The notes beneath the pieces are model-generated. The model had not been told where the DNA came from. It did not search any database and saw only the letters and a program-made list of their open reading frames with translations. From NCBI GenBank assembly GCA_015231405.1, contig JADGBR010000004.1:64189-128188 (forward strand): a stretch of DNA of 64,000 nt, in the 5' to 3' direction. Below, piece after piece: positions 35,631-60,654 of the stretch. Made by a program: the position numbers and the translations under genes. Position 1 is the stretch's first letter, and every line of letters begins with the position of its first letter. The DNA comes from Candidatus Omnitrophota bacterium. GTDB taxonomy: Bacteria; Omnitrophota; Gorgyraeia; Tantalellales; Tantalellaceae.

Positions 35631-35702
35631 AAAATCTCGGCCTAATATCGTTATACATTATACACGATACATCATCCATGACCTTTTGGGAAGTTTGTAC
35701 TA

Positions 35703-35977
35703 GTTCAGTTGTGGAACGGAACACCGTCATTGCGAGGAGCGAAGCGACGAAGCAATCCCAACACTCTCATTAGAGTACCTTTTAATTCCTTCAGTTCTTT
35801 TTCATATTGGCTGCAATCCTTGCAACCGGTCAAATGATATGCTCCCTTTTTGCATGGAGAATATCATAGATATTTCAATTCGCAAGTATTCGGATATTTT
35901 TGCAGGGATTGCTTCGTCGGCCTGCGGGCCTCCTCGCAATGACACCAAGGCGCCCTTATCGCTGCCATAACTGAACT
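35703..35977. mobile_element. MITE-like non-autonomous element, copy A (~275 bp) with ~60-bp imperfect terminal inverted repeats
   Basis: The left TIR AGTTCAGTTGTGGAACGG...CGTCATTGCGAGGAGCGAAGCGACGAAGCAATCCC is the reverse complement of the right TIR GGGATTGCTTCGTCGGCC...CCTCGCAATGAC...AACTGAACT. It is non-coding. Confidence 0.6.
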
Positions 35978-35993
35978 TTTACCCCATAGGGAT

Positions 35994-37079
35994 TTACCAT
36001 CTCCACGCGACGCCGGCGTTGATCGTTGTTTCGGCGCCGGATGCCAGGATGGAGAGGAAGGCCTGGCCGTCGCCTTTCAGGATGTTGTGGGATAATTTTA
36101 GTTCGATGCCGATGTCCCTGTTCTCCGGGTCGTTCTTCAGCCGGAAAGAAACGGTGTTGTTTTCGAGGAGCCTGATATCGGCGCCGAAGACTATCGTTCC
36201 CGTCCTTTTATCGCCGTACCGCGCCTCGAAAGCCAGGCCCAAGTCCCTTTTCAAATACCATTTGCCGGATAAAGTTATTATCCGTTTTACCGGATCGGCT
36301 TTTGAGACCAGTCCGATCCCGGCCTCGTAGCGTATATCCCCTTCCCTGAAGACCCCCGCTCCGGTCTTAAATGAGAATACCGAATCCGTATCCCCGCTGA
36401 GCGCGTATGTGATGCGGAACTTCTCTTTTACGACCCAACGCCCGGCGAAGACAAGCGTATGGGTCTGGCTCTTTTTCCTAATGAGAGCTTTCTCTTCGTA
36501 ACGATAAACTAACTGGAAGTCGTCGTTCATATCCCATGCGCCCATAAAAGTGAGGATGTCGTACCTGCCTCCCTCTTTTCGCGCGTGGAACGTTATCCTG
36601 TTATTATCGTCAGCTTTCCAGGACCCGCCGAGCTCGAGAACATAGATCGAACGCGTGTGCTTTTTTGTCACCGTCGTGACGGCGAATAAAAGGGAATTGC
36701 CTTTAACGTCGAGGATATCGCCCTCGAGGGTTATTTTATCGCCGAATGTTTCACGCGAGGATTTGTCCAGGGTAAGAGAGAGAGCGTGGTCATCCGTTAA
36801 AGCCCAATCGCCCGTCAGCCTGAGCTGGTTCGGGATCTCCATGCCTTCGGGGAGAGGCGCTTTAATACGGTAGGTGAGTTCGTTATTCCCGTCGACCATG
36901 AACCGGCCGTCAAGCACCTGCCTGAATTCGGGGAGATCGCTTTTTTCGCCGTAGCTGTTAAGGACCAGCCTGTTATAGGGGTCTATTTCGTAGCGTATCC
37001 GCGGCACGCGATCTCCTCCCGGATGTTTAGGATCGTCTTGAATAAAATTCCCGTATTTTCTCCGCGACGCGCCTGGCAT
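35994..37079 (-). CDS. Hypothetical beta-rich protein (C-terminal ...AGVAWRW)
   Basis: 361 aa with no recognisable motif. It has the C-terminal aromatic ending of OM beta-barrels but no obvious signal peptide. Confidence 0.35.
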
Positions 37080-38133
37080 TGTCCTCGGGCATATCGGGAT
37101 AAATGGGAAGGCTTAAGATCTCGCCGGATATTTTTTGAGTATTCTTAAGGCTTTTGCCGGTCCTGGCACTGCCGCTATAGGCCGGCTGGAGATGTACGGG
37201 TACGGGATAATGGATAGCTGTCTGGATACCATTATCGGATAAAAAAGCCCTTAGCTCTTCCCTTCTTTTAGAACGGATGACGAACTGGTGATAAACATGC
37301 CGGACATTAGGGGCCTCGTAAGGCAACACTATATCGAGCCCGGATAACATTTCTTTATAAATAGCGGCTATCCCTATCCGCCTGGAATTCTCCATGTCCA
37401 GATATTTTAGCTTCACCCGCAATATGGCCGCCTGTATCTCGTCGAGCCTCGAGTTCATGCCTTTCGACGCGCTCACATACCTTTCTTTCCAGCCGTATTC
37501 CCTCGCGGCCCTGACTTTATCGGCGAGAACGCCGTTATCCGTGACGACAATGCCACCGTCACCGAGCGCACCGAGATTCTTGGTCGGGTAAAAGCTGAAC
37601 GCCGCCATATCGCCCATGGAACCGGTCTTTTTCCCGGAAAATAGAGCGCCATGGGACTGGGCGGAATCTTCTATCACTTTGAGGCCTCTTTCACGGGCGA
37701 AAGGAATGATCTTATCCATGTCCGCCGGATGTCCATAAAGATGCACCGGTATAATGGCCTTGGTTTTTTGGGTGAGGGCGCCTTCCATTTCGCGGATATC
37801 GATCGTATAAGTTTCGGGATCGACGTCCACTAGAACAGGCGCCCCGCCGGCAAGCTCGATAGCGGCGACGGTCGCGACCGCCGTATGTGAAACAGTGATG
37901 ACCTCGTCGCCCGGCCCTATCCCTCCGGCCATGACGGCGAGAGCTACCGCTTCCGTTCCGTTAGCGACGCCGATCGCGTATTTCACGCCGATATACCCGG
38001 CGAACTCTTCCTCGAATTTTCTGACTTCACCGCCAAGGATATAGCACCCGCCCTCGAGCGCAATGGCGATAGCCTGTTCTATCTCATTTTTATGGCTCAG
38101 GTAATTCGCTTTAGGGTCGGCCTGTTTTATCAT
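37027..38133 (-). CDS. DegT/DnrJ/EryC1/StrS-family sugar aminotransferase (ArnB/WbpE-like)
   Basis: Start is at the internal Met [12 protein letters not shown], whose ATG overlaps the upstream stop by 1 nt. The PLP-aminotransferase fold is present, including ...[17 protein letters not shown]... Confidence 0.85.
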
Positions 38134-39116
38134 CAGATATAATTCCCCGCGTTCTCCCTGTAATAATCCAATGTCTCTTTTAGCGCCTGTTTCAGCCTGA
38201 CTTTCGGCTTCCAGCGGCACTGTTTCGTGAACTTCGAATGGTCCGCGTAATAATCATCGATGTCTATTTTTTTCCGGTCGGCCGGGAATTCTTTTATTTT
38301 GTAAGAGCCTTCCCCGTTAACGGCGACGAGAAGTTCCGCGAGGTCTTTCAATTTGATGGACCCGTCCCCGCCCAGGTTGAAGATATTCCCCGCCGCTTTC
38401 TTATCCGACCCGGCTATCAAAAAGGCGCTGGTCGCGTCCCTGGAATAAGTGAAATCCCTTATCTGGTCCCCGCCCCAGACCTCGAAAGGCTTCCCTTCCA
38501 GAAGAAACCGTATCCATATGCCCAGGAATGTCTGCCGTGAGTCCTTGATCCTCATACGCGGACCGATCGTATTGGTCAAACGAAGCACGCATACCCTGAT
38601 GCCGTATACCCTGTGGTAAAGCATATGGTACTGTTCCCCGGCCAGTTTATTGACGCCGTTGATATCCACGGGGCATAAAGGATGTTTCTCATCGACGGGA
38701 AGATATTCGGGCTTACCGTAGATCTGGCGGGTGCTGGCGTATACGATCGAAATACCCGGGTTATATTTACGGCAGGCTTCCAGGATATGCAGCTGGGCCC
38801 GCGCGTTGATGTCCAGGTCCGCGAGCGGGTCCGACATGGAATCCATATGGGAAGTCTGACCCGCGAGGTTAAAAAGATGGTCGACGCCCCTGACGAGATA
38901 TTTCATGCTGTGATCGTCCCTCACGTCGGAAATGTTTATCTTTATCTTATCCGCAATACCCTCGACGTTAAAGAGGTTGCCGCCATATTCGGGAATGAGA
39001 CTATCTATGACCACGACCTTAGCCCCGAGTCCGACCAGCTCGATGGCCAGGTTAGAACCTAAGAAACCCAACCCGCCGGTTATGAGCACCTTCTTGTTCT
39101 TATAATAATTTTTCAT
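38133..39116 (-). CDS. NAD-dependent epimerase/dehydratase, extended SDR (UDP-glucuronate decarboxylase/ArnA-C-terminal-like)
   Basis: 327 aa. Motifs: [14 protein letters not shown] and [10 protein letters not shown] (Ser-Tyr-Lys). Confidence 0.8.
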
Positions 39117-39190
39117 AAGCTGATGGACTTTTCTATTATTTTCCTGTATTTTACCAATACGCCGTTGTTTTGCAACAAATTATTCCATAA

Positions 39191-40171
39191 TTGGAGCCTG
39201 ATATGATAGCCGGTCCGGACCTTCAATGTATATTCTGTAGAGGCGCTCTGGATAAGACGCCGCGTTTTATCGTCACCGATAAGCTTGCCCTTGGCCGGAA
39301 AATACCCTACCGGTTCCACAGGTGTTCCCTCTGCGGATCGGATATACTCGCCGGAGGAGTGGACGAAGGCGAGAATTCGAAGACATATGAAGAGAACTAC
39401 ATGTTCAGCATGGATGAGAAAGGCGGACGCCTCCGAAAGGCGCTGCAAAAAGCGGAATGGAACCTCTTCTACAAGAGAACTTACCTTTCCGACGCGCGGC
39501 TCATCGAAAAGTACATGGGCGGGAGACGTTTCAGACTATTGGATGTCGGATGCGGGTCGGGCCTCCGTGTTAAATGTTTCGGGGAATACGGGTTCGACGC
39601 CCGCGGGATCGAGACATCACACCCGGCGGTCGAATACGCGGCCAACAAACTTGGCTGTGACGTAAGGCTTAGATCCCTCCGGGACTGTGTCATTGCGAGA
39701 GAGAGCTACGATATAGTCACATCTTACGCCGTGCTCGAGCATATTACCGACCCTTCGGTTTTTATCGCCGATCTCGTTAAATTGCTTAAGCCCGGAGGGC
39801 TACTGCTCTTAAGGGTCCCGCTCGCCGGATCGTTCCAGATGAGGATTTTCGCCGGGAGCCACAGCCTTTACAGGGAAGCTCCACGGCATGTCTGGATACC
39901 CTCATTTAAAGCGATGACGGAAAATATCGAAAAGTTCGGGTTGTCGCTTATCGGGCACCGGAGTGAGCCTCTTCTTAGCGCAGCCAGCCACGCGAGTTTG
40001 TCATTGTTCCCTATGGCCGCTAACGCTATCGCGGTAAAGGTCGGCTTAAGAGGGGTATTTTACAGGTTGGTTGGAGCACTTTTGGCCGTTTTCCCCGGAA
40101 TACCTCTGGCGCTTGCCGATTCTTTCCGGGGCGTCGGGGCGCATACGGATTTTGTTTACAGGAAGTCCTAG
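39191..40171 (+). CDS. Class I SAM-dependent methyltransferase with N-terminal Zn-ribbon (CxxC...CxxC)
   Basis: 326 aa. Motif I is LLDVGCGSG. The N-terminus has CIFC...CSLC. Confidence 0.7.
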   Translation: MEPDMIAGPDLQCIFCRGALDKTPRFIVTDKLALGRKIPYRFHRCSLCGSDILAGGVDEGENSKTYEENYMFSMDEKGGRLRKALQKAEWNLFYKRTYLSDARLIEKYMGGRRFRLLDVGCGSGLRVKCFGEYGFDARGIETSHPAVEYAANKLGCDVRLRSLRDCVIARESYDIVTSYAVLEHITDPSVFIADLVKLLKPGGLLLLRVPLAGSFQMRIFAGSHSLYREAPRHVWIPSFKAMTENIEKFGLSLIGHRSEPLLSAASHASLSLFPMAANAIAVKVGLRGVFYRLVGALLAVFPGIPLALADSFRGVGAHTDFVYRKS

Positions 40172-40184
40172 GGTATATTATTAT

Positions 40185-40219
40185 GGGGATTGCTTCGTCG
40201 CTTCGCTCCTCGCAATGAC
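40185..40219 (+). repeat. Solo copy of the 35-38-nt MITE core motif GGGATTGCTTCGTCG-N-CTCCTCGCAATGAC
   Basis: It is identical in its arms to the TIR cores of elements A and B. It lies just upstream of, and partly overlaps, the annotated start of the next GT-C gene. Confidence 0.6.
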
Positions 40220-40227
40220 GGCGGTTC

Positions 40228-42688
<2,461 letters not shown>

Positions 42689-42781
42689 CTATATCCTCCT
42701 TACTATTTTAAATAGTAGCTCCTCCATTAAAAATCCCGCGCCCCGACATCGCGAACCCCGGGAAGCGGGGTGAAGCGATCT

Positions 42782-43786
42782 CTATTGGGATTGCTTCGTC
42801 GCCTTCGGCTCCTCGCAATGACGGAGCTGATCCAAAATTCTGTCATGGCAAAGGCCATTAGTGGCTATAATGCCGATATTATTCTCGAGCGACCGGTCGA
42901 AACTGAAGTCAAGGGGTTTGCCGGTTATGTCAGTCACTTTGCCTCCGGCTTCTTCTACTATTACGCACCCGGCGGCGTGGTCCCATATCATCTGCCGGTA
43001 GTCCGGGGTTAGAGGCGACTGCATCCTGAGATATGCCGAGACATCTCCTCTCGCCACGAGGGCGTATTTAGCCTGGCCGTCTATACGCGTATGCGGAGCT
43101 GATACTCCAAGCCGTCCATATAAACGGTCATGGGCGGCGTGATCGGTATGGGCTGATTCGAAGCTTTCGACGAATTTGAGTTCACCCGGATCTTTATCGG
43201 CCGAAACATGTATACTCCTGGATACCGATATGTCCTCTATCCATATCACCCGAGCGCCGCGGCGTTTTTCGGCGACGAAAATACAACCCTTCTTCCCGTC
43301 TTCGTAGTCGATGTTCGGACAGCCAAGCGCGCCGAAAAGGATCTCGCCGTTCTCGATCAGAGCCAGGGCTATGGCGTATTGGCCGCCCCTTAAGAACCCT
43401 TTGGTGCCGTCTATGGGGTCGAGCACCCATTTCCTGGACGGCCCTCTTTTATGATCGCAGTCTATCCACCGGGATATGTTCGCTAACGATACTTCCCCGG
43501 GGAAAATATCTCCGACAAGACCCACGATCTGTTCGACCATTTCATTATCGCCGGAAATAAGGCCGGAAGAGTGTTCTTCGGCTACGACGGGTTCTCCCGG
43601 AAAATGTTCGCGGAGTTCCCTGCATATGACGGCCTGGGAGGCGTAATCGGCGACGGTCACGGGGCTTTTGTCGGATTTCTTCTGGGACCGGTACAGGACG
43701 AGATCGGCCTGGACCTTTATGCAGATCCGCGACGCGGCGAGTACCGCCTTAACCGCTATTTCTGTCTCTTTTGTCAGCTCCGCCAT
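42782..43786 (-). CDS. cysQ: 3'(2'),5'-bisphosphate nucleotidase (CysQ/inositol-monophosphatase family)
   Basis: 334 aa. WVLDPIDGTKGF is the metal-binding signature. Confidence 0.75.
   Translation of the reverse strand: MAELTKETEIAVKAVLAASRICIKVQADLVLYRSQKKSDKSPVTVADYASQAVICRELREHFPGEPVVAEEHSSGLISGDNEMVEQIVGLVGDIFPGEVSLANISRWIDCDHKRGPSRKWVLDPIDGTKGFLRGGQYAIALALIENGEILFGALGCPNIDYEDGKKGCIFVAEKRRGARVIWIEDISVSRSIHVSADKDPGELKFVESFESAHTDHAAHDRLYGRLGVSAPHTRIDGQAKYALVARGDVSAYLRMQSPLTPDYRQMIWDHAAGCVIVEEAGGKVTDITGKPLDFSFDRSLENNIGIIATNGLCHDRILDQLRHCEEPKATKQSQ
42787..42822 (+). repeat. Solo copy of the MITE core motif (GGGATTGCTTCGTCGCCTTCGGCTCCTCGCAATGAC)
   Basis: The arms are the same as in the other copies. 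The central spacer is a different small palindrome (GCCttcGGC). It overlaps the cysQ stop codon region. Confidence 0.6.
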
Positions 43787-43802
43787 AAGTCAGCCCTCGG
43801 AT

Positions 43803-44867
43803 CTACATATACAGGTAATCAAGCCCCACTTCGCCCTTGTTCTCCAATAACTCAATATCGGCTTTCACCATTATCTCGACCAGTTCCGTGAATTTTACCT
43901 TCGGGGACCATCCCAGCTCTTTCCGGGCTTTGGATGGATCTCCCAGGAGCTGTTCTACCTCGGCCGGCCTGAAGTACTGGGGGTCGATCTCTATAAGGAC
44001 CTTGTTCTTTTTCTTGCAAAGACCTTTCTCGGTAACGCCTTTACCCTGCCAGACGATATCTATCCCCGCGCATTTGAAAGCTTTCTCTGAGAATTCCCTG
44101 ACGGTATGGTTCTCTCCCGTCGCGATGACATAATCCCCGGGTTCGTCCCTATCCATCATCATCCACATGGCCTCTACGTATTCCGGCGCGTATCCCCAGT
44201 CCCTTTTCGCGTCCAGATTGCCGAGATATACTTTTTCCTGAAGCCCGGCTTTTATCTTGGCAACCGCGCTGGTTATTTTGCGGGTGACGAACCGCGAGTC
44301 CCTTCTCTCCGATTCGTGGTTAAAAAGTATGCCGTTACAGGCGAACAAGCCGTAAGCCTCACGGTAATTCACGGTTATCCAGTACCCGTAGACCTTGGCG
44401 GCCGCGTACGGGCTTCTCGGGTAGAACGGAGTGGTCTCTTTCTGCGGTATTTCCATGACCTTCCCGAACATCTCGCTCGATGACGCCTGGTAGAACTTGG
44501 CTTTTATCCGCACCTCTCTTATCACGTCAAGGAGCCTTAAAACCCCGAGCGCGTCGGTATCGGACGTATACTCGGGCTGGCTGAATGAGACCCCTACATG
44601 GCTCTGCGCGGCGAGATTGTATATCTCATGCGGCTCTATCTTCTCGATAAGCCTGCTCAAATTGCTCGAGTCGACCATATCGCCGTAATGGAGATGGAAC
44701 TTCACCCCTTTCTCATGCAGGTCCTTGTAAAGGTGGTCCAGCCTCTGCGTATTGAAATTCGACGCCCTCCTTATTATCCCGTGCACTTCGTAGCCTTTTT
44801 TGAGCAAGAGCTCCGCGAGATATGAACCGTCTTGGCCGGTTATGCCGGTTATCAGAGCTTTTTTCAT
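43803..44867 (-). CDS. gmd: GDP-mannose 4,6-dehydratase
   Basis: 354 aa. [47 protein letters not shown] is a near-canonical Gmd N-terminus. Confidence 0.95.
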
Positions 44868-44913
44868 TATTCACGACCTCCTCATTAAATACTCCAACTC
44901 CAAAAAAACGCGG

Positions 44914-45657
44914 CTAAACAGGTTTTTTCGCCACACAGAAAACCGACGATCCGAAGGGAAACGTAACCCTTAACAATAATTCATTCTCCAGGAACAACAC
45001 GCCTTTCAGCATATCGTTAATAAAACCTGGTAATCTGTTCAACCCGGCGATGTTCTTTTTATGACAGAACGGGAATACCCTCTCCAATAACCGGCCTGCC
45101 AGAAGGACGGGAAACAGCAGCGAATCCCTGTAAGTTATCCTTTCAATGGCGAACCCGGCGTTAAGTACCTTCATTTTTACCTCACCCAGGGTATACCTGT
45201 GCTTCGCGTGAACAAGCTCATCGTGTTTCGCGGTCAGAAAAGAGAATGCCGGGACGTTGACTATAAATAACCCGCCGTCAGTCATGACCCTGAATATTTC
45301 CGACAATGCCGCCATATCGTCCCCTACATCCCTGTGGTACAACACACCCATCGAAACTACAACTCCGAAACTCGAACTTTTAAAAGGCAGCCCCGATACC
45401 GACGCCCGGGCAAGCCGCGTCAAATTCCTTTTTTTGCAGAAACGAAGCGCTTCGGACGATATATCGACCCCGTATGCCTCGCGCCTCCCTAAGGAAGCGA
45501 GCAGCCCACCCGTCCCGCACCCGGCGTCAAGGAGCTTTGTTCCGTACCAATTTCCGCAATATCCCTCCAAGGTCCTCGAAAGGAACCTTTTCTGGGCTTC
45601 ATACCACCAGTACGAATCCTCAAGCTCATACATTTTAGCGTATTCCGGTATTTCCAT
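44914..45657 (-). CDS. Class I SAM-dependent methyltransferase
   Basis: Start is at MEIPEYAKMYELED. Motif I is LLDAGCGTGGL. The track ORF extends to 45786 and would overlap the upstream gene. Confidence 0.7.
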   Translation of the reverse strand: MEIPEYAKMYELEDSYWWYEAQKRFLSRTLEGYCGNWYGTKLLDAGCGTGGLLASLGRREAYGVDISSEALRFCKKRNLTRLARASVSGLPFKSSSFGVVVSMGVLYHRDVGDDMAALSEIFRVMTDGGLFIVNVPAFSFLTAKHDELVHAKHRYTLGEVKMKVLNAGFAIERITYRDSLLFPVLLAGRLLERVFPFCHKKNIAGLNRLPGFINDMLKGVLFLENELLLRVTFPFGSSVFCVAKKPV

Positions 45658-46585
45658 CCCTCTCCCCGTGCAACCCCCTAACGACGTACTGGGGCGTCTG
45701 GTTGTTATATAGGAACAACCTTCCGATATATTCCCCCAGGAGGCCCAGCGTAAGGAGCTGTATACCGGAAAAGACCATGATGGCAATGATCAAGGACGGG
45801 TACCCCACGACCAGCCCGGGGTTTTTTATCTTTTCCGTGATAACGACCCCGCTGAATACCACCCCGAGCACGCTTAGGAAAATACCGAGAAAAGTACTTA
45901 TCCTCAACGGGTTGATAGAAAAATTCACGAACATGTTCAGCCATAAAAGGAAAAGTTTCCGTAATGTATACCCCGACCCGCCCGAATAACGGTCCTCATG
46001 GCGCACCTTTACCCGGCCGATATTGTTCGTGCACCTCAATATCAACCCATCTATGTAAGGGAAAGGCCCCCTGTACTTTATTATCTCGCCGGCCACGAAA
46101 CGGCTTACGCATTTGAAACTGGATAAATACAGGTCCTTCGGCTTATCCATCACCAGGTTCGCCACAAAATGGTTAAACCTGCTGCCAAGGTTCCTGGCCC
46201 ATGAATGTTTCTTCTCATCGTACTGGACATAAACAACGTCTAAAGACCCAGCCAGCGCTTTATCGAAGAGGATGGGAACTTCTTCCGGGGGATTTTGGAA
46301 GTCATCGTCCATTATAACCACGTTATCCCCGGTAACGTGGTTAAGCCCGGCCATTACGGCGTTATGCTCCCCGAAATTCTTCGAAAGCTCCAGGTACATG
46401 ACCGAGCCTTTATATTTCCCGGCCAGGGCCAGGCACGCCCCATGGCTGTTATCCCGGCTGCCGTCGTTCACAAGGATGATCTCAACGCCCTGTTTCCCGA
46501 GTATCTCTATAAGCTTATCCACAAGCATGGTTATTGTCTTTTCTCCGTTATATACGGGTATTACCAAGGATCGCTTAATATCCAT
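45635..46585 (-). CDS. GT2-family polyprenyl-phosphate sugar synthase (ArnC/GtrB/DPM1-like), second copy
   Basis: 316 aa. Motifs: LVIPVYNGE, ILVNDGSRD and a DxD in VIMDDDFQ. The C-terminus has two TM helices. Confidence 0.8.
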   Translation of the reverse strand: MDIKRSLVIPVYNGEKTITMLVDKLIEILGKQGVEIILVNDGSRDNSHGACLALAGKYKGSVMYLELSKNFGEHNAVMAGLNHVTGDNVVIMDDDFQNPPEEVPILFDKALAGSLDVVYVQYDEKKHSWARNLGSRFNHFVANLVMDKPKDLYLSSFKCVSRFVAGEIIKYRGPFPYIDGLILRCTNNIGRVKVRHEDRYSGGSGYTLRKLFLLWLNMFVNFSINPLRISTFLGIFLSVLGVVFSGVVITEKIKNPGLVVGYPSLIIAIMVFSGIQLLTLGLLGEYIGRLFLYNNQTPQYVVRGLHGERDGNTGIR

Positions 46586-46950
46586 TTTTTCTCCCGATAG
46601 AGTTGAACAAAGCCGAAATATCCTTTGACAAAGGGTTATACCTCATGAAAATATCCAGGAATTTAAACGGCAAAGTGAAAAGCATCATGATGCCCAGCAG
46701 GATATTCCGCAGGCGTTCGTTCCCGAAAGACAGAATGATGGCCACCCATCCCTGGAATACCCATAGTCGGGCGGCTGTTCACCCCCAGCCCCATTATCCC
46801 GAACCCCTGGATCCACATTATCACGCGGAAAAACAACGGCATTTATCACATCGGCCTGGACCCGGGTATTACCGGACCCGAGGTTCATGAAAACCCCTTC
46901 TTTCCCATTTAAGGATATCATACTCATCGCGGGGAATAAAGCCCGCCTGT

Positions 46951-47943
46951 TTAAAATCTTTTCCTGACATACCTTCCAACCTTGCGCAAACTGACACCAC
47001 GGTTCGGGAAACCGCATATCTCATTCAAAACTTCTCCCGCGACCCTAATGACGGACGCTTCACCGGCGCTGACGTACTTGAAACCCTCATAGGGGCACGT
47101 GCAGTCTATAAGGGGGCACGGGGCGGGTGTTTTGTCGGGTGTGTACTTCCCTTTAAGAAGGTTGCCGTATCTCTTGTACGAGCTCGAGCAGCGGTAGAGG
47201 TTGCCGGAGGGGTCCATGCGGAAATAATCCATCCCCGTCCGGCATGGGTTTCCGAAATAATTGACGCTCGTGTTCATGACCTTCTCTTCCCGGGGATCGA
47301 GGGAGTATTTATAGATGAACTCTTTTTCCTCGCGGGTAAAAGCGGCCGGATATTTTTTGCCGTTATGGTATCCCCTGAAAGTCTTGGCGTTAACGAGCTT
47401 GATCCCGCGAGATTTCAGGTATTTTACGTCCAGGGCCATTTTTTCCAATAGACGGGGGTATGTCAGATATCCTACATCGATATTGAAACCTTTCTCCTGG
47501 AGGATGAGCACCTTTTCAATAAAATGATCTATGCCGGCAGGATTTTTCTCTCGCGCGGTTTTATGGAACCCGGCGTTCAGGAAAACGACCTTATCGGGCG
47601 ATATCCTGTTAGCGAATTCCCTGACGTTCAAGGTCGAAAGATTGGTATTAAGAGATATGAAGTGCCCTTTCGTCAGCTCGGCGCAAAGATCGACGAATTT
47701 CGGGTAAAGGAACGGCTCGCCGCCCGACATGTGTACCTGCCAGACCTTACCGGTATCGTTAAAACACCCGGCGATATGAGCGGGACCGTATTTGCCGCAA
47801 TCGGGATGCTCCTTCGACAGTTTCTCCTCGCCGCAAAAACAGTACTCGCAACGGAAATTGCACAGGTTATTAAGCTGCCAGAAGACCATGCTGTCCGGCC
47901 GTTTACCGCTCGTACCCTTAATATCCCTTGTAAAGTCGCTCAT
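46951..47943 (-). CDS. Radical SAM protein with SPASM-like C-terminal Cys cluster (anSME/BtrN-like architecture)
   Basis: Start is at MSDFTRDIKG. WQLNNLCNFRCEYCF (CxxxCxxC) is near the N-terminus. The C-terminus has CRTGMDY...CPLIDCTCPYEG. The track ORF extends to 48018. Confidence 0.7.
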   Translation of the reverse strand: MSDFTRDIKGTSGKRPDSMVFWQLNNLCNFRCEYCFCGEEKLSKEHPDCGKYGPAHIAGCFNDTGKVWQVHMSGGEPFLYPKFVDLCAELTKGHFISLNTNLSTLNVREFANRISPDKVVFLNAGFHKTAREKNPAGIDHFIEKVLILQEKGFNIDVGYLTYPRLLEKMALDVKYLKSRGIKLVNAKTFRGYHNGKKYPAAFTREEKEFIYKYSLDPREEKVMNTSVNYFGNPCRTGMDYFRMDPSGNLYRCSSSYKRYGNLLKGKYTPDKTPAPCPLIDCTCPYEGFKYVSAGEASVIRVAGEVLNEICGFPNRGVSLRKVGRYVRKRF

Positions 47944-47944
47944 A

Positions 47945-49570
47945 TTAAGATCTGTCCGAATACACCACGAATTCCCCTTCGGGGTATCTGAACGCTTTCC
48001 TTTCGTATTTACCGGCATTGAACCATGCTTCTGACCCTAGAAGGAAATCCTTTTCGAGCCCGGGGAAGACGGCTATTGTCTTTATATTCTCGGGGTCCTT
48101 GATATCCTTGAGCCATCTTCCCGTGTATCTCGTTTTGGCCTCTTCTTTCAGCCTTCGGGTCTCGGCCTTATCCACAAAAACGCGATCGGTGAAAATGAAC
48201 ATGTAATACAGGTTCTCCCCGGAGATCTGCCCGTAATGGGATAGATATACCGGCATCGTAAAAGAGGCTTCGCAGTTAATAACAGGGTCCACGACCGCCA
48301 GGATCCTGTCTTTTACCCCGGCGGTTCTTATGATCTCTTTCAAAAAGGCGTTAGTCTGCTTACCTTCGTCAGCAAGATATTTCACGCGGAAATATCCATA
48401 GCCCAGGCGCGGTATGAACATCAGGAATACCAGGGTAAAAAAAACCAGTTTTGAGAACACGGTTACCCTTTTATCTTTCCTTATCCGCCGGATCAGATAG
48501 ACCACCATAAAAGCCGTGCCCAGGAACGCCGGCAATAGGAACCTGTGGACGAGCCCGGTCTTGTTGTAGAGCGCCATCTCGGGGATCAATATCAGTAGAA
48601 ATAGGGTTAAAGCCTTAAAGGTATCAGTCCCGAATATCTTTTTAACGGAAAGCGCGTCTATTTTCCTTTTATCCCCGAAATAGGACTCGCCCACGATGAA
48701 TACGCCGAAGAATATCACAAGGACAGGGATTAGCTCGATAAGATCCAGCAGGAACAATTTGAATTCACGCGCAGCGAAAAGAGGATTTCTTATCATCATC
48801 GCAAGAAAAGTACCCTCACCAAAACCGGCCATCGATTCCTTGTGGATATCTACGTAATGTCTGATGATGTAAATATCGAACGCCAGTATCGAGAATAACA
48901 CCGCGGCGGCGGTGATATTACCCGCGGCAGCGCGAATAAATGGAACATTATCCCTTTTTGAACACAGCCATACCTTCCAGAAAAAGAACGCCGGAACGAT
49001 CACAATGAAACTCTCCTTACACAGTGATGAGATGAAAAGCATGGATAAAGATATGACGCCATACGCCTTCCCTCCCGAGCGCACCCCTTTAGCCATAAAA
49101 AAAAGGGCCCCCGAGAAAAATACCATACCTATCGACTCCGCCACGCCCAGCCGCCACCAGATGGGGACCTGCTGCCCAATAAGCGTCAAAAAAGAAAAAA
49201 ACAGCGATTCGGCCGCATCGTATCCCATAGCGCGCATAAAAAGGAAGAGGAAATACGCGCAAACGACAGCCAAAAAGGTATGGTAGACATAAAACAGTTT
49301 GAAATTATCCCCGAACGATCGGATCTCCAGGAACCTGTGCAGGTTCCTGAACGGCCTAAACCTTATATGTTCCTTAAAGATCTCATCCAATACGCTTTTT
49401 TTGGCTCCGGCAAGAAAGCCCGTGCCATTATTCCCCCGAGCGCCTGAAAGTATCTGAGAATCATCCTTAAAATGGAACCCGGAACCCAATGTTCCGCTAA
49501 TAATGAGCAAACCGGAGTAAAACGATACTATAAACAATAAAACCAGCAGATTCGTCCTCATAGTTAGCAC
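47945..49570 (-). CDS. Polytopic membrane protein, probable GT-C-type glycosyltransferase
   Basis: 541 aa and about 12 TM helices. FKDDSQIL (an acidic pair) follows TM1. The C-terminal ~130 aa is soluble. Confidence 0.4.
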   Translation of the reverse strand: MLTMRTNLLVLLFIVSFYSGLLIISGTLGSGFHFKDDSQILSGARGNNGTGFLAGAKKSVLDEIFKEHIRFRPFRNLHRFLEIRSFGDNFKLFYVYHTFLAVVCAYFLFLFMRAMGYDAAESLFFSFLTLIGQQVPIWWRLGVAESIGMVFFSGALFFMAKGVRSGGKAYGVISLSMLFISSLCKESFIVIVPAFFFWKVWLCSKRDNVPFIRAAAGNITAAAVLFSILAFDIYIIRHYVDIHKESMAGFGEGTFLAMMIRNPLFAAREFKLFLLDLIELIPVLVIFFGVFIVGESYFGDKRKIDALSVKKIFGTDTFKALTLFLLILIPEMALYNKTGLVHRFLLPAFLGTAFMVVYLIRRIRKDKRVTVFSKLVFFTLVFLMFIPRLGYGYFRVKYLADEGKQTNAFLKEIIRTAGVKDRILAVVDPVINCEASFTMPVYLSHYGQISGENLYYMFIFTDRVFVDKAETRRLKEEAKTRYTGRWLKDIKDPENIKTIAVFPGLEKDFLLGSEAWFNAGKYERKAFRYPEGEFVVYSDRS

Positions 49571-49703
49571 ATTTTTAACACTTTTAATTTACTGTGTCAA
49601 TAGCCTGTGTCGCTATAATTAATAATGGAAAGACATAGTCTGAACATTAACATTTACAAATGCCGGCCAAACGTGGATAATTAGTCCGGAGGGGGGTCCA
49701 TCT

Positions 49704-50774
49704 ATGGTCAATATCGGGGTCATAGGCTTCGGATACTGGGGTCCGAACCTTGTAAGAAATTTCACGCATCATCCAAAATGCTCGGTCAAAAGGATAGCTG
49801 ACCAGTCGGAAGCCCGCCTCGCTACCGCCCAGAAGATGTACCCTTTTATCCAGACCACGACGGACATGTACAGGGTACTCGATGACCCCGGGATACAGGG
49901 CGTCGTGATCGCCACTCCTATCAACACGCATTACCGTATCGCTAAGGAAGCTCTTTTACGCGGCAAGCACGTGCTGGTCGAAAAGCCGCTGACAAACTCG
50001 AGAGCCCACGCCCTCGAACTCATCAAAATAGCCAAAGAAAAAGACCTGCGGCTCATGGTGGACCATATCTACCTCTATAACGGGGCGATAAGGAAGATAA
50101 AAGAGATCATTTCCAAAGGCGAGCTCGGGAAAATACAGTATTTCGATTCCATAAGGGTCAATCTGGGCCTTATACAGAACGACTCGAACGTCCTATGGGA
50201 CCTCGCGGTGCACGACCTGTCGATCTTGAATTTTCTGGTGGAAGAGAAGCCTTCGAGCCTCATCGCGACGGGCGTATCGCATACGATGAACAATATCGAG
50301 AATATCGCCTATATCACGCTCAACTACAGTTCAGGCATGATAACGCATATCAACTGCTCGTGGATCTCGCCCGTCAAGATACGCATGATACTCATCGGCG
50401 GAACAAAAAAAATGATAGTCTACAACGACGTCGAGCCGACGGAGAAGGTCAAGCTCTACGACACTAACTACCAGATAATCGAAAGGGAAAAAACCCTGGT
50501 CGATTATAGGATCGGGGATATCTATATACCAAAATTCGACCAGACCGAGGCTTTAAAGAACGTCGCCGACGATTTTATAGACTCTATCATCGAAGGGCGA
50601 GAACCTTTCTCTAACGGTAAAAGCGCTTACGATACCATCGATATCCTGGAAGCCGCACAGGAGTCCATAAAAAAGAACGGCAAAGAGGTGTTCCTTGATG
50701 GAAACAGTCAATATCGAGAACCCAAGGCAGCTGGTAAAGAACGTAAAGCTCGGAACAAACGTAGTGCTGCGTGA
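49704..50774 (+). CDS. Gfo/Idh/MocA-family NAD-dependent sugar oxidoreductase (WbpB-like)
   Basis: 356 aa. MVNIGVIGFGYWGPNLVRNF is the Rossmann N-terminus. GGAGG RBS sits 8 nt upstream. The 3' end overlaps the next gene. Confidence 0.85.
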   Translation: MVNIGVIGFGYWGPNLVRNFTHHPKCSVKRIADQSEARLATAQKMYPFIQTTTDMYRVLDDPGIQGVVIATPINTHYRIAKEALLRGKHVLVEKPLTNSRAHALELIKIAKEKDLRLMVDHIYLYNGAIRKIKEIISKGELGKIQYFDSIRVNLGLIQNDSNVLWDLAVHDLSILNFLVEEKPSSLIATGVSHTMNNIENIAYITLNYSSGMITHINCSWISPVKIRMILIGGTKKMIVYNDVEPTEKVKLYDTNYQIIEREKTLVDYRIGDIYIPKFDQTEALKNVADDFIDSIIEGREPFSNGKSAYDTIDILEAAQESIKKNGKEVFLDGNSQYREPKAAGKERKARNKRSAA

Positions 50775-51225
50775 GTTCATAAACCTTTACGGCTGTAGGA
50801 TCGGCGACAATTCCCGTGTGGGTACTTTCGTCGAGATACAAAAGAACTCGAGCGTCGGAAAGAACTGCAAGATACAAAGCCACTCCTTCATTTGCGAAGG
50901 GGTGGATATCATGGATAACGTATTCATCGGGCATAACGTTTCCTTCATCAACGACAAATACCCGAGATCCGTCAACCCCGACGGGACGCTCATGAACGAC
51001 GCGGACTGGAGCGTCTCTAAAACCCTAGTCGGGAAAGGCGCCTCTATCGGCACCAGCGCCACGATACTCTCGGGCGTCACCATAGGCGAGAATTCCATTA
51101 TCGGGGCGGGTTCTGTCGTCACCAAAGACATTCCGGCCAACGTGATAGCGGCCGGTAACCCCGCCAGGGTATTAAGGACCGTCGGAGGGAAAAGCCTTCC
51201 CGAGCGCGGCAAAAGGGTATCATGA
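50698..51225 (+). CDS. Hexapeptide-repeat N-acetyltransferase (WbpD-like)
   Basis: It has LbH repeats (...IGDNSRVGTFVEIQKNSSVGKNCKIQSHSFICEGVDIMDNVFIGHNVSF...) and ends with the typical ...AAGNPARVLR. Confidence 0.8.
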   Translation: METVNIENPRQLVKNVKLGTNVVLREFINLYGCRIGDNSRVGTFVEIQKNSSVGKNCKIQSHSFICEGVDIMDNVFIGHNVSFINDKYPRSVNPDGTLMNDADWSVSKTLVGKGASIGTSATILSGVTIGENSIIGAGSVVTKDIPANVIAAGNPARVLRTVGGKSLPERGKRVS

Positions 51226-51944
51226 TAAGCGGCGCCGGGCTCAGCGTTATTATACCCGTATACAACGAGAAGGAACTTCTCGCCCCGGCGATCAAAAGAT
51301 CAATGGATGCCCTCTCTTCAGGGTTCAGCGATTACGAGCTGATCATCGTCAACGACGGCTCCGACGCCTCAGGCACCCTCGAATTGAAGAGGGCCGCGGG
51401 TATCTACCCGGGCATAAAGGTCATAAACAACGACGTCAACCTGAACCTGGGCATATCGATACAGCGCGGGTTCATGGCGGCCTCTAAGGACCATATTCTC
51501 TTCAATTCAATTGACCTGCCTCTAGCTCCGGAAGATTATCCGGCCCTTATAGAAAAAGCGCGCGGCCTGGATATGCTCATACTCCAGAGAGAGGTTTACG
51601 CGGGGGCGTCCCTCTGGAGAAAGATCACATCTCGATCGAACCTCTTCTTAATTAAAACTCTTTTCCCAGTCGCCTCGCGCGGCATCAGAGATCTCAATTA
51701 CACGTTCATTTTCAGGCGCGATATCCGCTCGAAAATAATGCCGGTATCGAAAAGTCCCGCGTTCACCCAGCCCGAAATGATACTCCGGGCGATCTACAAT
51801 AAATTGAAAGTGCAAGTTGTCACCGTCCCCTACCACCCCCGCACCGCCGGTAAAGCTTCTTTAGGCAAACCGCATGACATCATCTGGTCGATGTACGATA
51901 TGTTACGATTCAGGGTTATGGCGTTCAGGCGTTTTTTGAGATAG
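51222..51944 (+). CDS. GT2-family glycosyltransferase
   Basis: 240 aa. Motifs: SVIIPVYNEKE, LIIVNDGSD and SIDLPL. The start overlaps the upstream stop (ATGA). Confidence 0.7.
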   Translation: MISGAGLSVIIPVYNEKELLAPAIKRSMDALSSGFSDYELIIVNDGSDASGTLELKRAAGIYPGIKVINNDVNLNLGISIQRGFMAASKDHILFNSIDLPLAPEDYPALIEKARGLDMLILQREVYAGASLWRKITSRSNLFLIKTLFPVASRGIRDLNYTFIFRRDIRSKIMPVSKSPAFTQPEMILRAIYNKLKVQVVTVPYHPRTAGKASLGKPHDIIWSMYDMLRFRVMAFRRFLR

Positions 51945-52050
51945 CGGTTAGCGTATAGCGGCTAGCGTTTAGTGAACAATACCTGCGCTAAACGCCAAAC
52001 ACGTTATCATAACCGACTAACCGCTAAACGCTGATCGCTAAACGCTAAAC
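51945..52050. repeat. Imperfect ~100-bp palindrome built from GCTAAACG/CGTTTAGC units, immediately upstream of a promoter
   Basis: The left arm agcggttagcgtatagcggctagcgtttag is the inverted complement of the right arm ctaaccgctaaacgctgatcgctaaacgctaaacc. The right arm recurs as a 28-bp exact inverted copy at 61424-61451. Confidence 0.6.
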
Positions 52051-52065
52051 CGTTGACTCTAAAAT

Positions 52066-52094
52066 TTGTTCCTCGCGATATCCTGTGGTATAGT
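52066..52094 (+). promoter_or_regulatory. Sigma70-like promoter TTGTTC-17-TATAGT for the LOG-family gene
   Basis: The -35 box is at 52066-52071 and the -10 box at 52089-52094. GGAG RBS is at about 52113 and the ATG at 52128. Confidence 0.45.
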
Positions 52095-52127
52095 TTATGG
52101 AGCTTTTAACCGAAAGGAGCGGGCCGC

Positions 52128-52970
52128 ATGACAATGGACAGTAAAGACATTAAAAAAAAGCTGGTAAAGGCCTATAACAACTGGGATTTCCTCAACGGCC
52201 CGGACGCGCGTATCGTAAGGGTGCTCGCGGAAATGGTAGAGCCCGCCACGCGTTTCAGGAAACTCGGGATCCGCAACACCGTCGTCTTTTTCGGATCAGC
52301 CCGGACGCTTCCGGCCGATACGGCCATGAGTAACCTCCGTGCGGTCGAAGCCAAAATGCGGCAGGTAAAAAAGGTCTCCCCTAAGCTCAAAGAGAATTAT
52401 CACACGGCCATGCGCAACCTCAAGACATCGAGATACTTCGAGGACGCCTCAGACCTGTCGGAAAAACTGGCGCTGTGGTTCAAACAGCTGAGAAAAAAGA
52501 ACATCCATTTCAGCATCTGCTCCGGAGGAGGCCCCGGGATCATGGCGGCCGCGAATAAGGGCGCCTGGAAAGCTAAAGAAAAATCCATTGGGCTAAATAT
52601 AAGCCTGCCCATGGAGCAGTACCCTAACCCTTACCAGGACAAGGAACTTTCATTCGAGTTCCATTATTTTTTCATCCGCAAATTCTGGTTCACTTACCCG
52701 GCCAAGGCGCTCGTGGTCTTCCCCGGAGGTTTCGGGACCATGGACGAGCTCTTCGAGCTCCTGACCCTGATACAGACCCAAAAGACCAAAAAATATATGC
52801 CCATAGTCCTATACGGCAAGGAGTACTGGGAGGAGGTAATTAACCTCAAGAAAATGCTGGACTCCGGCTATATAGACGCTAGCGACCTGAAACTGTTCAA
52901 AATATTCGACGACGTGAACGAGGCTTTCGATTTTCTGAAGGGAGAATTAAAAAGGCACTACGTCGATTGA
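52128..52970 (+). CDS. LOG-family protein (cytokinin riboside 5'-monophosphate phosphoribohydrolase-like/TIGR00730)
   Basis: 280 aa. GGGPGIMAA and PGGFGTMDEL are the LOG signatures. Confidence 0.8.
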   Translation: MTMDSKDIKKKLVKAYNNWDFLNGPDARIVRVLAEMVEPATRFRKLGIRNTVVFFGSARTLPADTAMSNLRAVEAKMRQVKKVSPKLKENYHTAMRNLKTSRYFEDASDLSEKLALWFKQLRKKNIHFSICSGGGPGIMAAANKGAWKAKEKSIGLNISLPMEQYPNPYQDKELSFEFHYFFIRKFWFTYPAKALVVFPGGFGTMDELFELLTLIQTQKTKKYMPIVLYGKEYWEEVINLKKMLDSGYIDASDLKLFKIFDDVNEAFDFLKGELKRHYVD

Positions 52971-52984
52971 CACAGAGCTATAAG

Positions 52985-53209
52985 CTTTCAGTTGCGGGAC
53001 ATACCGCCGTCATCGCGAGGAGCGAAGCGACGAAGCGATCTCAACAGATAACCTAAGTAGGAACCTTTCGAAGAACTTCGATTTGCTTGGAGTATATCTT
53101 AGTTATTTTAATTCGCAAGTATTCGGATATTTTTGTAGGGATTGCTTCGTCGGCCTCATGGCCCCTCGCAATGACGACACGGCGCCTTAATCGCTACCGC
53201 AACTGAACT
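52985..53209. mobile_element. MITE-like element copy B (~225 bp), same family as 35703-35977
   Basis: The left TIR is CTTTCAGTTGCGGGAC...CGTCATCGCGAGGAGCGAAGCGACGAAGCGATCTC. The right TIR is GGGATTGCTTCGTCGGCCTCATGGCCCCTCGCAATGAC...AACTGAACT. The internal segment shares TTAATTCGCAAGTATTCGGATATTTTTG with copy A. Confidence 0.6.
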
Positions 53210-53232
53210 ATTACGACAGCTGATAGCTAAGT

Positions 53233-54894
53233 TCATAAATATCCCAGGCTTTTTATCTTCTCCGTGTCGGCGTCATCGCCTTTCCGGGATATCCTTTTGA
53301 TCAAAACTCCGGACATCGACCTGAAATATCCTTCCATCCGCTTAAGAAGCTTTTCGTATATCGTGGAATACGCGGCATTCGCGGCCAGGTCCTGTTGCTC
53401 CAGCGGGTCGGCGGCAAGGTCGTACAGTTCAGGTCTCACGGACTTAAGCTCTTCCCTCGTAATGATGAGCTTGAACCCGTCCTCGACGAGCGCAGCGTGG
53501 TTGAATGCCTGAACGAAAAATATGTAGTCTTTCGGAGGCCTCGCGCCGTTCTTATCGCCGTTATCGCCCGGTTTTCTCAGCCTCAGCCCGTCGGAAGTAT
53601 GAGAAAAAACAAAATACGCCCCCGGCAAAACTATCTTACTTCCGGTCTTTATCATGTTCCAGTAAGAGATCCCGTCGATCTTCACTCCCAGCTCTATGCC
53701 AAGATACTCGAGAAGCGTCGGCATTATATCCGCCCCGGTTATCCCTGGAATTATCCGTTTCTGAGAAACACCCGGAAATTTCATGATAAGAGGGACATCG
53801 AGTGAGGCGTTGTACAGATATTTGTGATGCCCGAAATAGTTCGCTTTCTCGTAAAGGATCTCTCCATGGTCCGAGGTTATTATGATAGCGGTATTGTCGT
53901 AGAGCCCTTTTTCCTTAAGTTTGTCTGTCACTTTCCCGACGAGATCGTCGGCGAACGCTATTTCGCCGTCATAGGCGTTACGCATGGCTTTCACTTTATT
54001 TTCGGGGATCCCCTCTCCCGAAAAAGTAAGCTCCTCCTTCGCCAAGGCTTCGGAGGACAGGCCCTCCTTCGCCAAGGCTTCGGAGGACAGGCTCTCCTTC
54101 GCCAAGGCTTCGGAGGACAGGCTCTCCTCGTCATTCTTCTCTTCTTTAATATGTGTCTTATAATCCGGGTCGAACTCTAGTCCAAACTTCTCGGGAGGGT
54201 CATAAGGAAGATGCGGGTCGTAAAGGTGCAGCCACATGAAGAATTTCTTATCGCCGTTACCGTCAAGCCATCCCAGCGCCTCGCCGGTTGTTATATCCCC
54301 TGTTCTAAATAGCTGTTTATCTTCGGCGTCGAGATCGGAAAACGCGTCAAATCCCTGGCTGAAACCATTAGCGGCCCCCACGAGCCTTGTGCTCACAAAA
54401 CCCGCGGTAACATAGCCGTTACGTTTCATGACCTCGGCCAGCGTGGTGAATTTGTTATCCAAGCTATAAGCGTTCCGGTAGACAAGGTGCGACGCGGGAT
54501 AAAGTCCGGTCATTATCGTGCTATGCGAAGGAGTTGTCATGGGGATCGTTGTTATCGCCCCGTCAAAGACCACCGACTCAGCGGCTATCTTATCAATGTT
54601 CGGCGTCGTCCCGCGCCCGTACCCATAACACCCGAAACGGTCCTTTCTGGCAGTATCAATGACCACCAGAAGAACGTTAGGCCTGTCCTCCGAAGCCTCG
54701 GCGAAGGAGGGCCTGTCCTCCGAAGCCTCGGCGAAGGAGGGCCTGTCCTCCGAAGCCTCGCTTGTCCCGGGGGAAACCGGTGGGGCGAAGGAGGACCTGT
54801 CCTCTTCCGATATCGCCCAGCGCCAGTTAATAAACATCATTAACGCCAGAAAGATACCGGGTAATATGGAAAATCGACTTTTTCTCATGATCAT
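53233..54894 (-). CDS. Sulfatase-like hydrolase/transferase (alkaline-phosphatase superfamily) with signal peptide/TM anchor and two internal tandem-repeat insertions
   Basis: 553 aa. The N-terminus is hydrophobic. NVLLVVIDTARKDRFGCYGY is the metal-binding region. The nucleophile motif TTPSHSTIMTG has Thr where true sulfatases have Cys/Ser-x-P-x-R. There are low-complexity repeats SFAEASEDRP x3 and SSEALAKE(S/G)L x3. Confidence 0.7.
   Translation of the reverse strand: MIMRKSRFSILPGIFLALMMFINWRWAISEEDRSSFAPPVSPGTSEASEDRPSFAEASEDRPSFAEASEDRPNVLLVVIDTARKDRFGCYGYGRGTTPNIDKIAAESVVFDGAITTIPMTTPSHSTIMTGLYPASHLVYRNAYSLDNKFTTLAEVMKRNGYVTAGFVSTRLVGAANGFSQGFDAFSDLDAEDKQLFRTGDITTGEALGWLDGNGDKKFFMWLHLYDPHLPYDPPEKFGLEFDPDYKTHIKEEKNDEESLSSEALAKESLSSEALAKEGLSSEALAKEELTFSGEGIPENKVKAMRNAYDGEIAFADDLVGKVTDKLKEKGLYDNTAIIITSDHGEILYEKANYFGHHKYLYNASLDVPLIMKFPGVSQKRIIPGITGADIMPTLLEYLGIELGVKIDGISYWNMIKTGSKIVLPGAYFVFSHTSDGLRLRKPGDNGDKNGARPPKDYIFFVQAFNHAALVEDGFKLIITREELKSVRPELYDLAADPLEQQDLAANAAYSTIYEKLLKRMEGYFRSMSGVLIKRISRKGDDADTEKIKSLGYL
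54031..54130. repeat. 30-bp tandem repeat x3.3 inside the sulfatase-like CDS (unit CTCCTTCGCCAAGGCTTCGGAGGACAGGCC)
   Basis: Direct inspection. It encodes SSEALAKE(S/G)L repeats. It is the inverted complement of the array at 54681-54804. Confidence 0.85.
54681..54804. repeat. 30-bp tandem repeat x3+ inside the sulfatase-like CDS (unit GCCTGTCCTCCGAAGCCTCGGCGAAGGAGG), inverted relative to the array at 54031-54130
   Basis: Direct inspection. The unit is 28/30 identical to the reverse complement of the other array. It encodes SFAEASEDRP repeats. Confidence 0.85.
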
Positions 54895-54965
54895 CTACGA
54901 GTATATCCTTTCGACCCTAAAAATGGAAGAAGTTTGACTATTTTTGGATATGATAAGCCTAAAAG

Positions 54966-54974
54966 TGGTATAAT
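54966..54974 (+). promoter_or_regulatory. Extended -10 element TGgTATAAT upstream of the response-regulator gene
   Basis: TGGTATAAT lies 31 nt before the ATG at 55005. A weak -35 TTGGAT sits at 19-nt spacing. Confidence 0.4.
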
Positions 54975-55004
54975 ATATGCGGCATCACAAAATGCCTCAA
55001 AAAA

Positions 55005-55364: not shown

Positions 55365-55394
55365 AACGATCAGACTGTGGCATGATCCGTAAAA

Positions 55395-56327: not shown

Positions 56328-56373
56328 CCCCCACCCCCCAACTAACCCCGAATCACGAACCCCGAACCCCTCG

Positions 56374-60650: not shown

Positions 60651-60654
60651 TTCT

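Follow-up and report, generated by a model that had tools for sequence, protein, structure and literature searches.

The window analyzed here is a stretch of 64,000 nucleotides (64 kb) from a Candidatus Omnitrophota bacterium (NCBI GenBank assembly GCA_015231405.1, contig JADGBR010000004.1, positions 64,189 to 128,188 of the forward strand). It carries seven copies of a short tagged palindrome, comparable to the repetitive extragenic palindromic (REP) sequences of other bacteria, at four independent sites. The region is a long, mostly minus-strand cluster for glycan or nonulosonic-acid synthesis, with genes for NeuB, a CMP-transferase, DegT aminotransferases, several B12-radical-SAM enzymes and glycosyltransferases. 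The copies are laid out as one singleton, one tight inverted dimer and two dimers that each lie within a longer element bounded by terminal inverted repeats (TIRs); in all three dimers the tags are on the outside. The REP-like unit is very widespread, and the window set consists of lineage-specific copies of it; the two TIR-bounded dimers sit inside what appears to be a type of miniature inverted-repeat transposable element (MITE) that is found in other metagenomes too. For the window itself the repeats are of little importance: they mark gene boundaries of the glycan-synthesis cluster, and at one of these boundaries the tail of an enzyme appears to have been rewritten.

Repeat units and composite elements

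The original prediction, made from the letters of this DNA, described a new MITE-like family with four hairpin cores, each composed of two paired motifs. Both motifs were recovered from the window (GGGATTGCTTCGTCG, five exact matches and one with two mismatches; CTCCTCGCAATGAC, four exact matches and two with one mismatch) and were paired, with 7 to 12 nt between them, at every place reported; the number of cores is six rather than four, as each composite has an inverted pair. A search of the 64 kb with a unit profile built from 271 related units returned these six known units at E ≤ 1e-4 and nothing else credible, and one diverged unit was added by direct reading of the sequence. On the tag strand the unit takes the form (C/T)GTC-ATTGC-GAGGAG, a small hairpin, then CGACGAA-GCAAT-CC(C) or CTC. 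The tag is CGTC in five of the six clear units and TGTC in the sixth, the tails are CCC or CTC, and every window unit has ATTGC/GCAAT or ATCGC/GCGAT as its outer stem. The spacer at the center had been said to differ in every copy, which is correct for the four centers then listed, each a small palindrome, but not for the full set, where GCTTCGC forms the center of three of the six units. No unit of the short form that is common in Alphaproteobacteria was found in the window. All seven units are confined to 17.5 kb, and the other 46 kb (positions 1-35000 and 53300-64000) are free of them. In annotation, the repeats will seed spurious small open reading frames (ORFs; peptide ...HCEERSDEATKQS...).

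Composite element 1 (286 bp, positions 35697-35982) is made up of a TIR, a linker, a REP unit, a 143-nt interior, an inverted REP unit, a second linker and the opposite TIR. Its left TIR (GTACTAGTTCAGTTGTGG, 35697-35714, plus strand) is 18 nt long and 83% complementary to the right TIR at 35965-35982, which reads GTAAAAGTTCAGTTATGG on the minus strand. The left REP unit (35725-35760, plus strand; profile E 1.5e-11) reads CGTC-ATTGCGAGGAG-CGAAG-CGACGAAGCAAT-CCC, with center GCGAAGC, and the right unit (35904-35944, minus strand; E 2.2e-9) has the tag TGTC and, on that strand, the center GGCC-CGCA-GGCC. Composite element 2 (235 bp, 52980-53214) repeats this layout with 54 nt less inside. Its left TIR (ATAAGCTTTCAGTTGCGG, 52980-52997, plus strand) contains an exact 11-nt arm, TTCAGTTGCGG, that pairs with CCGCAACTGAA; the right TIR is at 53197-53214 (minus-strand reading GTAATAGTTCAGTTGCGG). 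The left unit of element 2 (53008-53043, plus strand; E 1.2e-4) reads CGTC-ATCGCGAGGAG-CGAAG-CGACGAAGCGAT-CTC, with both sides of its outer stem changed to ATCGC/GCGAT; the right unit (53137-53176, minus strand; E 7.1e-9) has the tag CGTC and the minus-strand center GGCC-ATGA-GGCC.

Aligned end to end, the two composites are 80% identical with one 54-nt indel. Both end blocks are common to them, as is an 82-nt block on the right-hand side (89% identity, family D1) that includes the exact run AATTCGCAAGTATTCGGATATTTTTG and accounts for an interior block seen only in these two elements (35849-35903, plus strand, in element 1); the internal block in the original description was thus real. Since similarity stops at the element ends, the composites do not belong to a single duplicated segment, and the copies occupy independent sites. 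Both full elements had been detected from the start, with boundaries that comparison with relatives moved 6 to 7 nt outward. At their true ends the window elements read GTACTAG, GTAAAAG, ATAAGCT and GTAATAG, each followed by TTCAGTT.

All four sites lie 0 to 17 nt from a stop codon, and the gene context first given for them (an RHH gene, a GT-C gene, the cysQ stop, and LOG and sulfatase genes) was accurate. A 361-aa ORF has its stop 12 nt ahead of element 1, which is upstream of the RHH gene, and element 2 occupies the gap into which the LOG and sulfatase genes converge. The single unit (40185-40220, minus strand; profile match, tag CGTC, center GCGAAGC) is 14 nt past a methyltransferase stop (40171) and 8 nt ahead of the TTG that opens a PMT_2 (GT-C type) ORF; inverted-repeat and profile searches gave it no inverted partner, making it the sole true singleton. 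Directly upstream of this unit and of the PMT_2 glycosyltransferase gene is a sigma-70-like match (40155-40184, plus strand; TTTACA, 18 nt, TATTAT) that agrees with 10 of 12 consensus positions and is a consensus match only. Scanning of 60 window ORFs for transposase families gave no match.

The fourth site is the tight dimer at the end of the CysQ-like ORF. Its right half (42786-42823, minus strand; profile match, tag CGTC, center GCC-GAA-GGC) had been taken for a solo core, but a diverged inverted partner lies 4 nt to its left (42744-42782, plus strand). This left half, which the profile search did not detect, reads CGAC-ATCGCGAA-CCCCG-GGAAG-CGGGG-TGAAGCGAT-CTC, and both sides of its outer stem are changed (ATCGC/GCGAT in place of ATTGC/GCAAT). 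The final 12 codons of the CysQ-like ORF come from the right unit, and the stop codon (42782-42784) falls at the junction of the partner's tail with the 4-nt spacer. A JGI contig (L121) has the syntenic order epimerase-cysQ-epimerase, with a CysQ 86% identical to that of the window, and is without the repeat: the gap from cysQ to the next gene is 19 nt there and about 96 nt in the window. Both sequences have ...GATCAGCTCCGTCAT, after which the window runs into the dimer, and the CysQ proteins end in ...RHCEEPKATKQSQ in the window and ...RHLHFV in L121. At about positions 2100-2125 of L121, corresponding to 42820-42830 of the window, the empty site already has CGTCAT where the window dimer begins, so the REP tag may be derived from the target and not be part of the inserted DNA. 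A second empty site was sought via homologues of the LOG gene, none of which was closer than 65% identity.

We consider it likely that a selfish palindromic repeat, itself non-autonomous, inserted independently at each of the four sites, and that these are not a dedicated host device.

Unit structure, folding and possible RNA function

In a wider sample of 279 units, used for counts of tags and tails and containing 129 distinct centers, the general unit is 5'-(C/T)GTC-ATTGC-GAG(GAG), a variable small hairpin, then (CGA)CGAA-GCAAT-CCN-3'. Its outer stem of 5 bp is followed by an internal loop that is conserved, and the inner stem measures 2 to 7 bp, with loops mostly of 3 nt. The center spans 3 to 20 nt and is closed by a constant G-C pair. 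An anchored stem of at least 3 bp was present in 43 of the 129 distinct centers (mean of 8.6 and maximum of 17 in 500 shuffles), and the anchored stems comprised 24 distinct sequences, which confirms the compensatory variation that the original prediction had proposed for the center. Loops on the tag strand are mostly GNA (GAA 59, GCA 36, GTA 8, GGA 8), and GCGNAGC, an unusually stable DNA mini-hairpin (PMC13037366), was found in the center of 92 of 279 units. In the outer stem, two-sided changes (ATCGC/GCGAT, ATGGC/GCCAT and ACTGC/GCAGT) were seen in five unit sequences in all, and one-sided changes in about 17.

Single units folded no better than shuffled sequence, either as DNA (z of +0.2 to +1.3) or as RNA (z of +0.17 for the unit at 40185-40220), whereas the cysQ dimer reached z of −2.0 to −2.8 as DNA and −4.5 as RNA of the sense strand, and the composites reached −7.5 (element 1) and −3.7 (element 2) as single-stranded DNA. 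Stability is therefore a property of the dimer or of the entire element, and the idea that every core forms a stable hairpin did not hold. In the long-form units at 35725-35752 and 40193-40220, the tag CGTC is complementary to GACG in the conserved 3' half (GCGACGAAGC), and the resulting 4-bp CGTC/GACG helix is present in the minimum-energy DNA fold of long-form units.

The positions of the copies raise the alternative that the hairpins are RNA elements selected by the host (terminators, protectors of mRNA 3' ends or attenuators), which spread by function and not by selfish mobility. Beyond the proximity of all window sites to stop codons, copies in the wider sample often lie 2 to 35 nt past a stop, and convergent gaps (34) outnumber divergent ones (7); the compensatory change in the inner stem and the RNA fold of the dimer are also as expected of an RNA element, and PMC3733652 argues that many REPs act as RNA. 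Orientation relative to transcription argues the other way, since copies in co-directional gaps are 33 sense and 48 antisense, without the strong bias that a strand-specific RNA role would call for, and single units fold like shuffled sequence. Nor did the "terminator-like" label survive: none of 18 terminator-like sites between positions 35000 and 54000 coincides with a copy, and no run of T follows the units. The syntenic contig L121 does without the cysQ dimer, and the near-identity of the sequence across phyla exceeds what simple hairpin function would need. We therefore regard a host-selected RNA function as unlikely, and as the explanation for these sites we favor insertion of a selfish repeat.

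Distribution and relation to known repeat families

The motif is not peculiar to this window; outside it, the unit is extremely widespread. In viral contigs, a degenerate unit pattern gave at least 144 matches in at least 120 loci. In contigs drawn from one genome per species, many bacterial phyla were among the matches listed, with many Bradyrhizobium, other Alphaproteobacteria, Rickettsia, Tisiphia and Sphingomonadales; Pedobacter, Chryseobacterium, Mucilaginibacter and Tannerella (Bacteroidota included); Anaerolineaceae (Chloroflexota), Desulfobacterales, Patescibacteria and Berkelbacteria; and Zixibacteria, Latescibacterota, Ignavibacteriota, Armatimonadetes, Opitutaceae, Bacillota and another Omnitrophica genome. 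A 34-nt stretch of a window unit is 100% identical in a plasmid of Methylosinus trichosporium. Among GenBank phages (50,697 records) a typical dimer gave one weak match, so the matches in environmental viral contigs say little about cultured phages.

Tags in the wider sample were CGTC (149 of 279) or TGTC (116 of 279), and the tails CCA (113), CTC (88) and CCC (30) were frequent. About half of the 279 units had an inverted partner within 160 nt with tags outside and spacers of roughly 10 to 90 nt, and at least 52 such dimers were counted in viral loci. The commonest dimer joins a short form, GTCATTGCGAG-CGAAG-CGAAGCAATCCAG, to a long form with two extra triplets, a pairing assigned by reading. 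ORFs adjoining 150 units were spread over 215 Pfam families, each having three members at most, and no transposase family was among the 25 Pfam families listed. How REPs with a CGTC tag move without a transposase of their own is a question prompted by the near-identical 33-nt palindrome that Omnitrophica, candidate-phyla-radiation bacteria, Bacteroidota and Alphaproteobacteria share. In a Candidatus Tisiphia endosymbiont (locus L222, 2127-2528), about 400 bp hold a cluster of six units in both orientations, no two of which have the same inner hairpin.

"REP-like" proved to be the right comparison, and for the same reason the family can hardly be called new: besides being present across many bacterial phyla, the unit fits the published description of CGTC-REPs (Di Nocera, De Gregorio & Rocco 2013, PMC3733652). 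Those repeats have an unpaired CGTC tag (often TGTC, with CCTC tolerated), stems that open with complementary A-T at positions 1 and 2, and an unpaired 3-nt tail approximating CCA. They occur mostly as tags-outside (HH) dimers with 20- to 100-bp spacers, whose ends are often complementary. They lie after ORFs in co-directional or convergent gaps, with some copies inside ORFs, and have no linked transposase. They are found mainly in Alphaproteobacteria, also in Bacteroidetes and other phyla, and correspond to RPE-4 and RPE-6 of Rickettsia and dRS3 of Neisseria. The present unit shares the tag (CGTC or TGTC), the stem starting with AT, the CCA-like 3-nt tail, the tags-outside dimers, the position after stop codons, a copy within an ORF (the CysQ C-terminus) and the lack of a linked transposase. 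The ATGAC motif at the ends of the RPE-4, -6 and -7 repeats (PMC3767692) is the end of the window unit, and the hosts overlap (Bradyrhizobium, Rickettsiales, Sphingomonadales, Micavibrio and Bacteroidetes). In contrast, the hosts of the unit extend to Omnitrophica, Patescibacteria, Chloroflexota, Zixibacteria and others. DNA and peptide strings of the unit were not found in the accessible text and supplements of PMC3733652, and literature searches with exact DNA and peptide strings gave unrelated primer matches only.

REPs of another kind carry a GTAG tag and, as inverted dimers (REP doublets forming hairpins [REPINs]), depend on a REP-flanked REP-associated tyrosine transposase (RAYT) of the IS200/IS605 type. 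Under a second alternative, the dimers would be REPINs copied by a single-copy RAYT elsewhere in the genome. In favor of this, both are small tagged palindromes located after genes, whose inverted dimers (spacers of 4 to 145 nt here) can make a long hairpin; the GCGNAGC center is suited to single-stranded DNA, and CGTCAT at the empty-site junction recalls the insertion of IS200/IS605 elements beside a fixed short target. Yet the tag here is CGTC or TGTC and not GTAG, no tyrosine transposase is linked to the unit, no transposase was enriched among the ORFs adjoining the 150 units, and PMC3733652 reports no RAYT gene flanked by CGTC repeats. Moreover, REPIN-RAYT populations are described as lineage specific and vertically inherited in 10.1101/2022.05.22.493013, whereas the present unit is near-identical across phyla. 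Copying by a RAYT thus seems very improbable.

Further comparisons were less close. Correia, ERIC, RUP, BOX and Rickettsia RPE-1 are likewise non-coding repeats, short and structured, that lie at gene boundaries and in some cases are read through in frame, as at the CysQ C-terminus, but they have no sequence relation to the unit. Rfam gave no match at gathering thresholds across the whole window, and one chance-level microRNA match in E-value mode around element 1. Two other candidates were rejected: integron attC sites, which are bulged hairpins with a variable center, because the R'/R'' consensus and cassette spacing are missing; and contamination or an adapter artifact, because centers vary, copies occur in complete isolate chromosomes, and positions are ordered at gene ends.

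MITE relatives, possible routes of spread and other repeats

The pattern TTCAGTTRYGG with a core 8 to 30 nt inside it occurs at 28 metagenome loci, at least 10 of which are complete small elements of 142 to 258 bp. TIRs of the relatives reach 7 nt beyond the search pattern, reading GTTACCA, GTAAGCA or GTAATCG followed by TTCAGTTAYGGG, and their termini have the form GTAAnnnTTCAGTTRYGG. Four of the relatives (L125, L126, L130 and L132) are flanked by exact 8-bp target duplications, each with a chance of about 1.5e-5 at random, and a fifth (L134) by a duplication matching at 7 of 8 positions; flanking repeats were also noted in L140 (8 of 9, by eye) and in L129 and L137 (6 of 8 each). Since neither the duplications nor the outward extension was part of the search pattern, they constitute independent evidence of whole-element transposition, and the two long elements of the window, which have the same ends, were rightly called MITE-like. 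In L140, a second, shorter element with like ends (about 435-540) directly follows the complete MITE, its REP dimer reduced to GTCATCGCAATGAC, as would follow from deletion of the palindrome.

A third alternative holds that the long elements are not transposons, and that REP dimers landed in a longer palindrome already present or that the structure was built up by local duplication. It draws on the lack of a target duplication at either window copy, and on PMC3733652, which describes longer palindromes with REP dimers inside them in Halothiobacillus and Anabaena. Weighing against it are the improbability by chance of exact duplications at four relatives with the same ends, the whole architecture that the window copies share at unrelated sites, with similarity ending exactly at the TIRs, and the failure to see TIR pairs without a dimer in the loci fetched. 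We consider this explanation highly unlikely.

Under the favored reading of selfish insertion, the TIRs and exact 8-bp duplications of the relatives suggest that a composite MITE would move as a whole, by a DDE-type cut-or-copy-and-paste reaction with the transposase supplied in trans. The best candidate source is an IS66-family element, because published ends of that family (20- to 30-bp repeats) start with GTAAGCG and generate 8-bp duplications (PMC11946415, PMC12888890); the ends of the present family start with GTAAGCA, GTAATCG, GTTACCA, GTAAAAG or GTAATAG. MITEs derived from IS66 are alike in several respects, as the composites measure 145 to 290 bp, have TIRs of about 18 bp starting with GTAA and no coding capacity, and in the relatives are flanked by 8-bp duplications. 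They differ in that the ends of the composites read GTAAnnnTTCAGTT and the interior is a REP dimer, not the remnants of insertion-sequence ends. For units outside the MITE, a single-stranded DNA step may be involved, because the commonest center on the tag strand is the very stable GCGNAGC mini-hairpin.

Several results weigh against this reading. No target duplication was found at elements 1 and 2 at any symmetric boundary, shifted boundaries included (the flanks of element 2, ACAGAGCT and GACAGCTG, give no clear duplication), and a 22-mer of the composite interior had no match in genome contigs or metagenome contigs; the case for mobility of the window composites is consequently drawn from relatives that share their ends, and these composites may be old, rearranged or no longer mobile. 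The match to IS66 ends covers only about the first 6 to 8 nt. Two TIR patterns had no match in viral contigs, a TIR query against plasmids gave chance matches only, and the fetched loci contained no TIR pairs 0.5 to 5 kb apart that might represent a parent element. At cysQ, where there is a single empty site and the neighboring intergenic DNA has diverged, the difference could conceivably reflect loss in the relative instead of gain in the window. Finally, the stem of the unit is split by a variable inner hairpin, whereas published CGTC-REP stems are continuous (8 to 9 bp, with 4- to 5-nt loops), although PMC3733652 concedes that its search may have missed relatives with bulges. We place the unit as a split-stem relative in the CGTC-tagged REP superfamily, or beside it, and not as one of the four families named in that paper, a placement by description that leaves exact family identity unproven.

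If dimers do travel as MITE cargo, with TIRs and 8-bp duplications and possibly with a transposase of the IS66 type, they could spread both within and between phyla; the MITE type would be a demonstrable vehicle for an orphan class of REPs, one with no known mobilizing enzyme, and make the question of movement without a transposase testable. That MITE cargo is a concrete route of spread for orphan CGTC-REPs, and that the split-stem unit, with its conserved internal loop and GCGNAGC mini-hairpin, is perhaps the recognition site of a broadly conserved factor that handles single-stranded DNA, we put forward tentatively, as a possibility that is rather doubtful at present. Effects on the host would be by-products only: dimers and composites would make strong hairpins in read-through transcripts past stop codons, and the final 12 residues of CysQ, together with its stop, would have been rewritten by one dimer.

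Two other sets of repeats in the window were recorded. The sulfatase ORF (53233-54894, minus strand) contains a 30-nt tandem repeat in three copies each at 54033-54128 and 54680-54769, in opposite orientations. The two arrays are 558 nt apart, have arms that are 96% complementary, and are both in frame, encoding SFAEASEDRP repeats just past the signal peptide and, midway through the sulfatase domain, ESLSSEALAK repeats; they resemble a palindromic repeat that codes for protein and belongs to a second family. In addition, a perfect 28-nt inverted pair (CTAACCGCTAAACGCTGATCGCTAAACG; 52017-52044 and 61424-61451) has its two copies, the only ones in the window, 9.4 kb apart, both intergenic and with a heptad-like GCGNTNA rhythm.

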